Shown here: positions 3,895 through 49,578 of the stretch, piece by piece
How the letters are laid out: each line of letters starts with the position of its first letter
Position numbering within the stretch: the stretch's first letter is position 1
Assembly (NCBI GenBank): GCA_964016885.1
Contig: OZ024743.1
Span: 108,810,001 to 108,874,000 of the forward strand
Length of the DNA: 64,000 bases
Origin: Eledone cirrhosa
Lineage: Eukaryota
Direction of reading: 5' to 3'
Notes under the pieces: model-generated
What the model saw: only the letters and a program-made list of their open reading frames with translations
Databases searched by the model: none
Told to the model about the DNA's origin: nothing
Position numbers and translations under genes: made by a program

Positions 3895-4253
3895 TTGTTA
3901 TATTTGGGGAGGGTCATATTTGCGTAATATTGCCAGAATTAATAACAGAACACACTCACTGTTTGGTTGGTTTTCGCTTCTCGCTGTCTTTCATATCTGT
4001 GATCTAACTTACTCGGTCCTCAATGTTGCTATTGACTGACCGGCGGTCAAAAATAATACAGATACAATATAGACACAAACACATATATATAGTTTACATA
4101 ATTTCCATAAATCTTTCGTTGCACATCTGCAACATCGTCAGTGGTGTTATATTCATTGTTCCTCCTGTTGTGTTGTATGTCTACGCCATTTTTTTTTTTT
4201 TTTAATTTTGTTCAGTCTGTCACACGATTTCATATAAAAAACCTCGCAAAACT
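3895..4253 (-). mobile_element. Solo family A pLTR with inverted tail piece at its 5' junction
   Basis: 3895-4220 is the reverse complement of ~2285-2595; 4221-4253 is the family A tail in the opposite orientation. Confidence 0.85.
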
Positions 4254-4391
4254 ATATATATATATATATATATATATATTTATTGGCAACATGACCCTCC
4301 CAAAGTATAACAATATATATATATATATATATATATATATATATATATATATATATATATATATATATATATATATATATATATATATATA

Positions 4392-7011
4392 GTAATAATA
4401 ATAAAATTGAAGACTAAAATCCAAAGAGGGCTCGATAAGGAAAATATATATCAAATATATAAGAACCGTAGAGCAAATATTTATTAAAATAACAGATTAA
4501 AGTTTAAGCAAATAATCGCTGCTTCACCCTTAACGGGATCTCCTGAAACTAACAAAGTCAATCTGTAAACGCAGAACTGGATATTTCAAAAAACGTTGCA
4601 ACCGGAGGAAGACAGGAAGACGATACTTTGGTTCGTGGTAACGTTCGCTGGCAAAGAACGGAAAAAAACGAATAATACGTCATTAATAGGAGCGGTGAAA
4701 AACAATTACGCGCAAAGACAGAATCACGTTTATGGTATAAAAGAGGTCGTGGACTAATGTTCTCTTAGGTGGTGCATAGAGACGTTCTCTGGCAATGAAC
4801 GAAAAAACGAAGATAATAAGTCATATGTGGATCGTGGAGAACAATAGCATGCAAAGAAAAACCACGTAAATGGTATAGCAGAAGTCGTAGACTACAATTC
4901 TAACTAGGAGACAAAATGAATCTCGGCTACAGAGTTAAGAACAAAGTATATAAATACAATACAGAAGTAATTGAAACAAATAAATACATACACGCAAACA
5001 GATACGTACATACACAAGCATACGCAAAACCTTACCATAGGTATACAAAACCACGCACATATAAATATGTGTGTGGGTATATTCTTGTGTACAAATAAAT
5101 AAATAATTATATAAATGTATATAAGTAAATAAATACGTATATAACAAGCGCACACGCATACCTACATATAAATACACGAATGTTCGGAGACGTAAGTCAA
5201 CTAAAACAAGAAGTACACATATACACACACCCACCATACGTACGAACCTGCATACTCACGCAGACGCAAAACTCCCGTATACACATAGCCAAACACTAAA
5301 TACCAGAATATGTAAAAATTATACGCCATAACAGTCAAATATACGTACGAGAAGGTATAGATACCTTCACAAAACATACGGGTAATATATACTTACCTAT
5401 GCAAATAAGTAAAGGAATAAACAAAACATATACTTAGCTCCCACATCAAGACGTAAAATATCCACGTATAGATCGTGCTATCCGTTGGGGCATAACGCGG
5501 GGCTGTAATACAGGAAAGTTTTGTGCAATTAATGTTTACAAGCCGAAATTGCCTCAGATTTTTTGTTTAAGATGTGGTCTGTGGCGTAGAGTATTTCCAG
5601 AGCCTCAGCGGCGCAGAGCTCACATGGTCTTTTATTTCCGTTATACGATCTAGCCCTAGCTAGGATTTCCCAGTGTAAATTATATTGGGTGTGGTTGTCT
5701 TTTAGACTCCAGATATAAGCTGAAAGTGACGTCATATTCCTTCTTAGAGGGTAACGAAAAGAATGGGTATGCATGTAAAGACGCTGCTTGAAACTATTGG
5801 CGGTTAACCCTATGTAGGCCCTACGGGACGTGAGTGTTACAACCTTACATTTGTAGACAATGTTACTAGAGAGGCAATTCCCGGATAGGGGGCAATCAGC
5901 CCGATTCCTACAATTACAGTTAGTACTAACTACAGGGTTGCACGTGTTCCTACAGCTAGGTAGTTTAGCTAAATTTGAAGCTGTGATGTTATGTGCAAGG
6001 TTACGAGTCGTAGAGTAAGAAATTTTAATAGTATTTCTATTAAAAATTTTACTATATTTATGTGTAGGGGGAAAATGCATCGTAATAAGGGAAAGAAAGA
6101 TCTTAGCTAATGGTGTGGCCACCTCCATATTATATGGTGGGTTAAACCAACAAATGCGACGGGATCTATTTCTTCTAGGTCTATTTTCGTACTCTCTATA
6201 TGCTACCTTATCGACAAATCCACTTCGAGCAAGAGCTTCATTGTAATAAGTGGATTGGTCGTTGAAAATGCGCTCGTTGGTGGAAAGACGGGAAAGCCTC
6301 AACGAAACGTTTCTTACCAGGTTCTTGGTTATGCTGTCAGGATGGTTGGAATGCTTACTTATGTAATTAATCGTATCATTCGGCTTTCTATACGGGTAAT
6401 ACAACCCATTCAATAAATTGAGGGTAACGTCGAGGTAATTAACGACCGAGAGATTGGCCTCAACCTGTATAGAGAGATTTAAGCCTTTAAAGAAGGCTGT
6501 GAGTTCTTTTCTGAACCTGTCGCAAGCGCGAGGTCCGCACTTAGTCATGGTCAAAAGACCATCGTCACGGTACAAACCACCGCCCGCGTTGGGGAATTCG
6601 TCCTTGATAGAGAAAAGAAGGAAAAGGCCAATAAGATTAGTAACCTCCGCAGAGTCACTGGCGCCCATACTAACGTCGAATGGGGTACTATTGGATTTTT
6701 TAATCCAAATAGAGTCGTCGAAATCAATCACCGACTTTCGGGCATTAAGGATGATATCAACTTCAAAATCCTTAACCACTGTGAGTGTTTTAGCGAAATT
6801 GATAGCTCTAAGGAGAAGCGGTAAAGTGATGGAGGAGTAGTAATTGTTGATGTCGTATTGGATAAAACGGCAATGTTCCTTGTTACATATGCCGTTGAAC
6901 CAATCAATCACCGCGAAAGAATTGTTCCACAGTGCGAGAGGGGCCAAACTTCTAATTTCAGGTATAATTCTATCAAGAATCGTTTTACTAAGTATACCTA
7001 AATCGCAGATA
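4392..7011 (-). mobile_element. Penelope-like element family B (probably Hydra-type), 5'-truncated
   Basis: RT/GIY-YIG ORF plus ~1.1-kb 3' UTR and tail ending at (TA)n. Confidence 0.9.
5529..6947 (-). CDS. PLE RT + GIY-YIG endonuclease (partial, open frame; extends to ~7011)
   Basis: FIQYDINNYYSSI, FDVSMGASDSAEV, GLYRDDGL, NYLDVTL, WFNPPYN, CNCRNRADCPLSGNC, IVYKC...YIGLT, PCELC. Confidence 0.9.
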   Translation of the reverse strand: MAPLALWNNSFAVIDWFNGICNKEHCRFIQYDINNYYSSITLPLLLRAINFAKTLTVVKDFEVDIILNARKSVIDFDDSIWIKKSNSTPFDVSMGASDSAEVTNLIGLFLLFSIKDEFPNAGGGLYRDDGLLTMTKCGPRACDRFRKELTAFFKGLNLSIQVEANLSVVNYLDVTLNLLNGLYYPYRKPNDTINYISKHSNHPDSITKNLVRNVSLRLSRLSTNERIFNDQSTYYNEALARSGFVDKVAYREYENRPRRNRSRRICWFNPPYNMEVATPLAKIFLSLITMHFPPTHKYSKIFNRNTIKISYSTTRNLAHNITASNLAKLPSCRNTCNPVVSTNCNCRNRADCPLSGNCLSSNIVYKCKVVTLTSRRAYIGLTANSFKQRLYMHTHSFRYPLRRNMTSLSAYIWSLKDNHTQYNLHWEILARARSYNGNKRPCELCAAEALEILYATDHILNKKSEAISACKH

Positions 7012-47084: not shown

Positions 47085-47350
47085 ATATATAATAGTAATT
47101 TATTTCGTTATATATATTTCGAGGACACTAATTTATAGTATGCTTTCCTCAGACAAAATACAATATTTGATGTATAAGATAGTAAGATACCTTTAAAATA
47201 GATCTCATACGTTCAACTTAAAATGGGCATGCCCATTTTAAGTTCACCGCATGAGGTCTATCTTCATCAAATATTGTATTTTGTCTGAGAGAGCATACTA
47301 TAAATTAGTATCCTTGATATATATATAACGAAATAAATTATGATGCTATA
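47085..47350. repeat. Spacerless palindrome
   Basis: Centre AACTTAAAATGGGCA|TGCCCATTTTAAGTT at 47229/47230; arms ~120-140 bp. Confidence 0.88.
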
Positions 47351-48330
47351 GTAATATATTTTCCCATATATATCTCAAGGGCATATTGAAAATATCCAGC
47401 CTGGTTACTTCAGGATCCCAAAACAGCTAATTAGTTATGTTCAAATCCATTTTCGAGAGGATTAGCAATGACTATATATATATTCATATATTTATATATA
47501 TAGATATATATATTTGAAAGAAAAGAAAAGAATGACTTCAAATGTTTGATTTAATTTTATAATATTATTATATTATGAGTTGGTAGATGCAGTAAGTTCT
47601 TTGTTAACTTCGGTGGGAAGAATTTTAATGATTCCTGGTTAACTTGGGTTGGAGAACTTTCTCCAATTCGTCTGTCTGTGGCGAATATATCAAAGGTATA
47701 TATTTGAGATTCTAACTCAATAAATACCTTTGAAATATTCGGCTACATTGATTTGTTGAGCTAATTCAAATGTCGAGTAAACCTAGCTGCTATTTTTAGT
47801 GATGTGAGTTTGTGAGACACGCTCAGTCCCGATACCATGTGCGTTATTATATATACGCACACTATTCAGTTTTTTTAATATACTTAGAAGTGACCAGTAT
47901 ACTAATTATTCACCCACTGTTGAACAAGAATCGGTAGTATTCCCCTTCACAATTAATTTTGCGAAAGAGCATAGCCAAACGCCATCTGGGTGATTGGTAG
48001 TTACCACAATTCCGGTTTGTGTTTATTTTCTTGATTTATTTTTAAATTGAGTCTGCCAAACCCTCTTGTCCATAGTTAGTATACTTTTCACCTTAGCGAA
48101 TCTGGTACCAAACGATTTGAACACACATATGTATATATCTGTTTTTATCTTTCTTTTATAATCGATTATAATATATATATATATATATATATATATATAT
48201 ATATATATGTGTGTGTGTGTGTATATATATATATATATATATATATATATATATATATATATATATATATATATATATATATATATATATATATATATAT
48301 ATATGTATATATATGTGTTTATATATATAT

Positions 48331-49578
48331 TAGTTTTGCGCGGTTTTTGATATGAATAAACACACACCAAAGAGACACAATTAGAATATACGAAGGACCC
48401 ACGGAGAAGTATAAGCCCCTCCTAGAACTGGACAAGAAAGGAATTTTCCCATTATACAGGACAAAATCATGGAATAACTTAGAAAGGACTAAACATAATA
48501 TGAGGAAAGCCACCTCATTGTACAACCAGAGATACCAGAGTGTCATGTTCGTGGACGCTACCCATGGAGGGAAATTAGCTAACCAGTGTAGAAAGGTCCT
48601 GAGAAAGACCCACCTAAAGATTAAGGTGGTAGAAAAGCAAGGAAACACCATAAAATCCCTGATCAGCAAAACATACCCTTTTAAGAAAACCCACTGTACT
48701 AATAGGAAATGTATTATATGTAAAGTAAACCCCCGGATAATCTGTAAAACTAGAAATGTAGTCTATAGCATAAGATGTACAGAGAGTACTTGCAGAAACA
48801 TGACCACAACATACATAGGCGAGACAGCTCGTAGCATAGGTGAAAGGATAGACCAACACTGGGGGGAACTAAAAGGAAGAAAAAACGGTTAAGTACTATA
48901 CGAACACGCCTGTCAAAAACATGACGGGAGCATAGACAACAGAAATTAAAATAATATCTAAAAATAGAAATGACCCAGCTTATAGGCAAATCAGAGAGGC
49001 CAGTGAAATAGAACTTAGAAGGCCAAAGCTAAACAGAAAAAAATGATTGGAATAACAACAACACCCAAACAAACCATTCTGACCTAAGAGAAATATAAAT
49101 AAATAAATAAATATATACACAAGCACAATAACAACAACCACATATAAACACAAACTTGTAAACTAAGATAGAATACAATAACCAAAACACAGTCACCCAA
49201 ACGTGAACACACGTCAAACACTATACACACACACACAAACGCATGCGCAGAGAAGAAGACTCAAATAAATAGATAAATAAATAAACAGATTAAATAAAGA
49301 TGGCGTAGACATACAATACAACAGGAGGAACCATAATAGCACCACTGACGATGTTGCAGATGTGCAACGAAGGAATTTTGTTAGACTATATATGTGTGTT
49401 TGTATCTTTATTATATCTGTATTTTTGACCGTTGGTCAGTCAATGGTAAACATTGAGGACCGAATAAAGTATCTGATATAAAAGATACAGAAGCGAAAAC
49501 CAACCAAACAGTGAGTGAGTTCTGTTATTAATTCTGGCAATATTATTACAACAATAAGACCCACCCCAATTATAACAA
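48331..49578 (+). mobile_element. Family A 3' fragment (GIY-YIG + pLTR) with inverted tail at 5' junction
   Basis: ORF 48500-48892; TAGTTTTGCGCGGTTTTTGATATGAA at 48331 is the reversed tail. Confidence 0.9.

Follow-up and report, generated by a model that had tools for sequence, protein, structure and literature searches.

Tail-only inverted arms at the 5′ ends of an endonuclease-positive Penelope-like element in Eledone cirrhosa: a plausible product of priming at two fixed RNA sites

A stretch of 64,000 nucleotides (nt) from Eledone cirrhosa (GenBank assembly GCA_964016885.1, contig OZ024743.1, positions 108,810,001 to 108,874,000), here called the window and numbered from its first letter, consists of eukaryotic DNA that is rich in (TA)n and carries many repeats and foldbacks. 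Among these is family A, a Penelope-like element (PLE), with six substantial copies (A1 to A6) and three sister-family stubs (Table 1). The insertion target of the family A copies is (TA)n; no full-length copy is present in the window, and A5 begins near homologue residue 163-167. In all four two-armed insertions of this family, the long arm ends at one and the same point, the end of the pseudo-long terminal repeat (pLTR), hereafter site 1, or close to it, and the shorter, inverted arm has a tail. In three of the four, the inverted arm is a part of that tail and nothing else.

On the basis of sequence features, family A is classed as an endonuclease-positive (EN+) PLE. Its protein has 54 homologues of 763 to 1732 amino acids, the closest named one being a hypothetical Octopus vulgaris protein (67% identity). 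The reverse transcriptase (RT) region matches Pfam RVT_1 at E=1.8e-4, which is below the curated cutoff, and the DK motif, taken as a test for PLE-type RT, was seen in P0001 and P0004. None of the family A pieces gave a Pfam match for the GIY-YIG endonuclease (EN); the C-terminal EN is assigned from the VVYxIxC...IGET...R...H pattern of PLE ENs, which these pieces contain, together with homologue P0041, which matches GIY-YIG at E=6.6e-7. The C-terminal EN-like region has a C-x4-CxxC linker and not the Hydra-clade type (CxCX5C without CCHH), a linker that does occur in families B and C of the window. In the pLTR of five of the six family A copies lies a hammerhead-like core (CTGACGA, a 6-bp stem II, and GAAA), and these five matches compare with 0.07 per window after shuffling. 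Stems I and III of the core are degenerate, and no hammerhead family is among the 150 of 172 Rfam matches listed, those listed being microsatellite driven. More hammerhead-like cores occur in other repeat families, at 10984(-), which looks canonical, 50324(+), 23851(-), 42256(+), and 3678(+)/2737(-).

The four tail sites cited in the initial annotation of this DNA were all found in the sequence. In A4, GTATAACAATAT (minus strand, 36908-36897; the initial annotation omitted the final AT) continues into the tail at 36896-36862, followed by 8 to 9 unrelated nt and then by (TA)n. As had been claimed, tail fragments are inverted at the 5′ junctions of A2, A3, and A6, where each is oriented opposite to the adjoining body, and the bodies stop at or near the same sequence: A2 and A6 at ends of the GTATAACAATAT type, with one substitution each, and A3 7 nt earlier, at GTATA. 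The fragments measure 33, 21, and 25 nt, respectively; they agree with the A4 tail at 25/26, 14/14, and 17/18 nt and share one end point, tail position 42, which we call site 2. When the A2 fragment was used as the query, the other three tails scored 47, 40, and 37, above the best of 100 shuffled queries (32). With the A4 tail as the query, the matches at 48339 (score, 31) and 27129 (score, 28) were reached by 3/100 and 16/100 shuffles and are individually not above this null. Each of the fragments is oriented opposite to a family A 5′ end that lies 0, 1, or 7 nt away (probability by chance, roughly 1.5e-3 for each), and the window contains no free-standing tail above the shuffle null. Since the fragments adjoin family A ends in this way, the suspicion that the tail is an independent repeat, scattered at random relative to family A, is not borne out in the window, and the inverted tail is confirmed as a real feature. 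Because the pattern recurs in two subfamilies 12 to 15% apart and with different break points, the three flips are independent events. A candidate fourth flipped tail, at 10433-10447, was rejected and left out of the count because it aligns by eye to the body of the sister subfamily.

The tail is likely the start of the element's own open reading frame (ORF). The last 26 nt of the pLTR and the tail form an open frame from an ATG in A4, MILPKYNNISFDTRFHIKNL, and the sister-family stub A7 keeps the same frame with synonymous changes, MTLPKFNNICFNTRLL. Within this ORF, the 42-nt tail covers codons 9 to 23. A motif chosen after the sequences had been seen, [FY][DN]TR, occurs twice in the 53,570 residues of the 54 homologues, both times N-terminally (positions 9 and 10 of P0019 and P0022). 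Because the frame continues from the ATG and the motif matches homologue N termini, the tail would correspond to RNA directly downstream of site 1. A tail of 30 to 40 nt that equals the ORF start is a trait of EN+ PLEs that family A thus appears to share; in the relevant passages, tails of this kind are also described for rotifer and Drosophila elements (PMC3846280, PMC2377424). Folding of the pLTR end with the tail gave no significant structure (z of -1.54 and 0.04), so a stem-loop at the start sites lacks support.

A4 had initially been taken as a contrasting copy with a direct 3′ tail, a view that we abandon: A4 abuts A5 head to head (junction, 38149/38150) and forms the inverted arm of the pair, which places its tail, too, on an inverted 5′ arm. 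Plus-strand homology extends back from A5 to 38369 and then to 38164 (E=6e-5 to P0022), 15 nt from the A4 5′ end at 38149, and there is no (TA)n in between. The pair is therefore most simply read as a single head-to-head insertion with arms of 1250 and 3080 nt. Quartet counts for co-insertion are star-like (4/2/5 informative sites in 1148 columns), so shared variants neither support nor contradict it; the case comes from direct abutment. With an inverted, 5′-truncated arm at its 5′ end, the A4/A5 foldback has the anatomy expected of EN+ PLEs. A5 ends at site 1 on (TA)n without a tail, and the rule of a long arm ending at site 1 and a tail on the shorter, inverted arm is thereby extended to four of four two-armed insertions, three of whose inverted arms stop within the tail. 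The proposal that tail-only arms are the short-arm limit of foldbacks is reinforced by this pair. Outside the rule stand two single-armed copies, A1, with a tail at neither end, and A7, with a direct tail and no second arm.

Table 1. Copies, arms, and tails of family A and of sister families in the window
Feature	Position	Strand	Remarks
A1, 5′-truncated family A PLE (RT, EN, 3′ untranslated region, pLTR end at site 1)	318..2598	+	
A2 body, site 1 end on (TA)n	3892..4221	-	97.6% identical to A1 over 293 nt
A2 inverted tail-only arm	4221..4253	+	Tail positions 10-42; 1 nt common with body
Sister-subfamily stub, 37 nt, ends at site 1	4280..4316	+	33 nt identical to 10400-10432
Stub ending at site 1, same sister subfamily as the 4280..4316 stub	10396..10447	-	
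A3 body, stops 7 nt before site 1, at neighboring TATA patch	26852..27130	-	
A3 inverted tail-only arm	27129..27149	+	Tail positions 22-42; 2 nt common with body
A7, single-armed sister-family stub	36155..36298	-	About 22-nt direct tail, same reading frame
Tail on A4	36853..36896	-	Positions 1-35 match other tails
A4, short inverted arm (about 1250 nt) of A4/A5 foldback	36897..38149	-	ORF-start ATG at 36922
Hammerhead-like core	37106..37133	-	Also 2349+, 4141-, 40993+, 49345+
A5, long arm (about 3080 nt) of A4/A5 foldback	38150..41229	+	ORF homology from 38164
A6 inverted tail-only arm	48332..48356	-	Tail positions 18-42
A6 inversion junction filler, 5-9 nt, source ambiguous	48357..48365	.	
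A6 body, site 1 end on (TA)n	48366..49581	+	

In RNA coordinates, the tail fragments start 9 (A2), 21 (A3), and 17 (A6) nt after the body end at site 1, gaps that grow by 4 nt if the terminal ATAT is target derived. The two parts overlap by 1 nt in A2 and by 2 nt in A3, overlaps of a size that is common by chance; A6 instead has 5 to 9 nt of filler (48356-48365), an inverted 9-nt copy of the flank at 48315-48323 that is also found in the 3′ region of the element. The A4/A5 junction, where a 5-bp mini-palindrome is seen, is not scorable for microhomology; the tail-only junctions are not palindromic. With these gaps, the three tail flips would fit the deletion class of L1 twin priming, in which 66% of inversions carry an internal deletion (median, 14.5 bp), according to the corresponding passages of bioRxiv 10.1101/2024.08.27.596794. 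Site 1 ends in ATAT, which is able to pair with a (TA)n primer, and a TA patch of at least 3 nt is present at site 1 in six of the seven families compared. Given also that A3 ends at the next TATA upstream of site 1, this site is probably set by positioning and pairing together.

Ten two-armed insertions in the window could be scored, and in eight of them (the four of family A and those of families E, C, F, and M) exactly one arm has a tail. The remaining two are the B foldback (7248-8922), with a tail on neither arm and both arms starting at site 1, and the D foldback (41271-43121), with tails on both. Since B and D each start both arms at the same site, events on two templates, or two passes, do occur in the window. 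By base composition, the tail of E is on the shorter arm; that of M is on the longer one, the arms of C are near-symmetric, and the longer arm of F was not assigned. Foldbacks G, H, I, J, K, L, and C2 lie outside the ten scored, and among the other families only B, C, and D are linked to a PLE ORF. A tail-only inverted arm is seen in family A alone; none was found for the E, B, C, F, and D tails among the window matches listed. Short arms of 47, 52, and 58 to 60 nt that overlap the other arm are present in B, M, and C. Three of the four inverted arms and one of eight other family A-related arms are no longer than 42 nt, a contrast that is suggestive only and not significant (one-sided Fisher P of about 0.07, calculated by hand).

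The head-to-head joins, fixed outer ends, gaps, and possible microhomology agree with the twin priming from two fixed sites put forward in the initial annotation, of which one element, the use of a single RNA, goes further than these features reach. Priming at two sites is also in keeping with what another PLE does in vitro (PMC11167929). We lean, with moderate confidence, toward a reading in which the endonuclease cuts both target strands and a single RNA serves as the template for priming at both target ends. One primer would pair with the 4-nt AU patch at the pLTR end and, from site 1, make the long arm; the other target end would be primed at site 2, 42 nt downstream, and its cDNA would usually stall behind the site 1 complex on the same RNA, leaving a tail-only arm. 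End joining would then seal the two cDNAs head to head. If the site 2 cDNA were extended beyond site 1, through displacement or with a second RNA as the template, a long foldback with a tail on one arm would result, as in A4/A5. Double priming at fixed sites as such, whether on one RNA or on two, we consider likely. A bolder version, in which twin priming is the normal insertion route, with a dimer using one RNA at two programmed sites 42 nt apart, is offered only tentatively. If it is true, a tail at one end and inverted pLTRs would be one outcome of twin priming, and tail-only arms would record the downstream enzyme stalling 9 to 21 nt behind the upstream one. Tail-only arms make the PLE insertion mechanism countable, as a step at the tail length in an arm length histogram, and they carry a risk for annotation: pieces of 21 to 33 nt will be missed, or the 5′ boundaries of PLE copies will be set wrongly.

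Several points weigh against stalling on one RNA. There are four two-armed insertions, and site 2 is fixed in three of the four tails only, the last 7 to 9 nt of the A4 tail (36853-36861) being unlike the end that the other three share. A1 is tailless, and A7 has its direct tail without a second arm. The A4/A5 arms overlap by about 1250 nt, far more than the L1 internal duplications would lead one to expect (median, 22 bp), and the L1 downstream primer gives the longer product, whereas here it would give the shorter one (both L1 values from passages of bioRxiv 10.1101/2024.08.27.596794). The two-template events of B and D occur in this very window, and the short overlapping arms of B, M, and C mean that short arms alone are no proof of blocking at site 1. 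As for the tail itself, local alignment of the complete N-terminal peptide gives a score of only 28 for the best homologue N terminus, a value reached by 2 of 887 background windows. The in vitro data on PLE priming come from another clade, in which initiation, in the passages of PMC11167929 used here, did not require target homology.

The A4/A5 overlap, the same-site arms of B and D, and the short overlapping arms of B, M, and C would all be expected if both target ends were primed on two RNAs, or on two pLTR units of a tandem transcript, with tail-only arms being merely the shortest truncations; the excess of arms of 42 nt or less, which is not significant, does not speak against this either. 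We nevertheless regard this reading as unlikely, since it leaves unexplained why the two arms begin at different sites in four of four family A insertions, and why the gaps have L1-like sizes; moreover, exactly one arm is tailed in eight of the ten scorable insertions. That the tail is instead an independent short repeat, or that the inversions are assembly chimeras, is a thought invited by the density of (TA)n-targeted repeats in the window, and we give it almost no credence: free-standing tails above the null are absent, the frame opened by the pLTR ATG runs on through the tail, whose peptide resembles the N termini of homologues, and the foldback arms differ by 4 to 16%.

Palindromes are unstable, and a hairpin deletion after insertion could in principle have removed the paired arm of a long foldback and left the tail, its sole unpaired part, with ends near the stem base and 1 to 2 nt of microhomology that would look alike. 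This is improbable, as many long foldbacks with 84 to 96% arm identity survive in the window, and the age trend runs the wrong way: the older A4/A5 (9.3% divergent) keeps 1250-nt arms, whereas the younger A2, so close to A1, is tail-only. Little more can be said for self-priming with junction palindromes, argued for in PMC3846280, or for placement of the tail by EN-mediated resolution of a transposition intermediate, proposed in PMC8557442 (both as worded in the passages at hand). While the mini-palindrome at the A4/A5 junction and the near-symmetric C arms are in line with self-priming, palindromes are absent from the tail-only junctions, and PMC11167929, in the part concerned, maps tail ends to RT start sites. 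Moreover, in four of four family A insertions the short arm holds sequence that the long arm lacks, for which snap-back copying offers no route and by which it is excluded for this family; taken as a whole, this group of explanations strikes us as quite improbable. In summary, we view the feature as a variant of known PLE anatomy, and priming from both target ends at sites 1 and 2 of a single RNA as a plausible and partly strengthened reading of it.

Other repeats in the window show related anatomy. Foldbacks of other families at 2637-3866, 10184-10380, 20613-22241, and 9055-9671 have a tail of about 75 to 128 nt on exactly one arm and end on (TA)n. The last of these has three parts, namely, a 52-nt inverted arm, an 84-nt direct tail-only fragment (9102-9185), and a body with a full tail, which suggests template jumps restarting at site 2. 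At 4391-8922 and 41271-46875, a foldback is followed by about 64 nt of (TA)n and then, in tandem, by a long 5′-truncated copy of the same family. A 29-nt match to the family C tail lies in another context (63395-63423) and is perhaps the end of a related element. Three related PLE ORFs are found at 5529-7025, 12593-14741, and 24239-25459, the first and third with the CxCX5C linker that is described for the Hydra clade. A long decayed PLE occupies 43194-46875, with RT pieces at 44705-45769. We take it to be probably Neptune-like, and the clade labels of families B to D are likewise in part assumed. Decayed minus-strand ORFs at 53476-58625 presumably belong to a Helitron Rep/helicase. A unit of about 440 nt, in tandem and inverted repeats broken by microsatellites, fills 28523-30450 and 15640-15926. 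Young dispersed repeats (91 to 97% identical) that end on (TA)n are located at 16553-17412, 19289-19883, 27624-28401, and 63511-63998, along with an ORF end that we assume to be RTE-like.

Among known systems, PLEs are on record as having a tail at one end or the other and arms in inverted orientation (PMC8557442, PMC3846280, and PMC2377424, each in the passages relevant here), and PMC3846280 places the tail on one of the inverted pLTRs. Family A differs from the EN+ PLEs of these three papers in that three of its four inverted arms are part of the tail only, so that no inverted repeat exists in those cases; the passages ascribe the structure to EN resolution or self-priming and do not describe tail-only arms. 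Neither such arms nor twin priming was found for PLEs in the literature searched, from which most subscription papers and the primary papers of 2001 to 2006 on twin priming and PLE structure, where such copies may already appear, were absent. In the C-terminal EN, the C-x4-CxxC linker, and the short spacer before the GIY half-site, family A resembles, by eye, the Nematis clade with its short CX2-5CxxC linker (Fig. S2 of PMC8557442), and it looks Nematis-like as far as the linker goes.

With L1 twin priming (PMC2912911 and bioRxiv 10.1101/2024.08.27.596794, as far as the pertinent passages go), family A would share a head-to-head join of two cDNAs, present in four of four two-armed copies with priming as the presumed step, as well as a short internal deletion, possible microhomology, and a target-paired internal primer. 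The arms do not overlap in three of the four, whereas those of A4/A5 do, by about 1250 nt. In contrast to L1, there is no poly(A) to serve the first primer and no variable second site: both sites would be internal and fixed, where L1 has a terminal site and an opportunistic one, the short product would come from the downstream primer, and overlaps may exceed 1 kb. Since poly(A) is lacking, the sites are fixed, and the length ratio is reversed, the proposed mechanism works much as L1 twin priming does yet falls outside that class.

The closest biochemical parallel is the Poseidon PLE of the anole (Anolis), whose protein, in the passages of PMC11167929 (2024) drawn on here, cuts and extends both strands in vitro, uses two internal start sites for reverse transcription, one at either end of the tail, and is predicted to dimerize. 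Cutting and extension of both strands, two start sites around the tail, a hammerhead or hammerhead-like motif upstream, and an AC-rich tail are features that family A would have in common with Poseidon; Poseidon differs in belonging to another clade, in having no zinc linker, and in the position of its start sites, 111 to 118 nt from the beginning of the ORF, where those of family A would be at about 26 and 68 nt. In those same passages, neither the target strands nor inversions are connected with the two sites, the strands are not reported to differ in start site, and the later steps are left unvalidated. A part of PMC8557442, for its part, calls the origin of PLE inverted repeats and one-sided tails undefined, and it is the tail-only arms that connect this anatomy with the two start sites.

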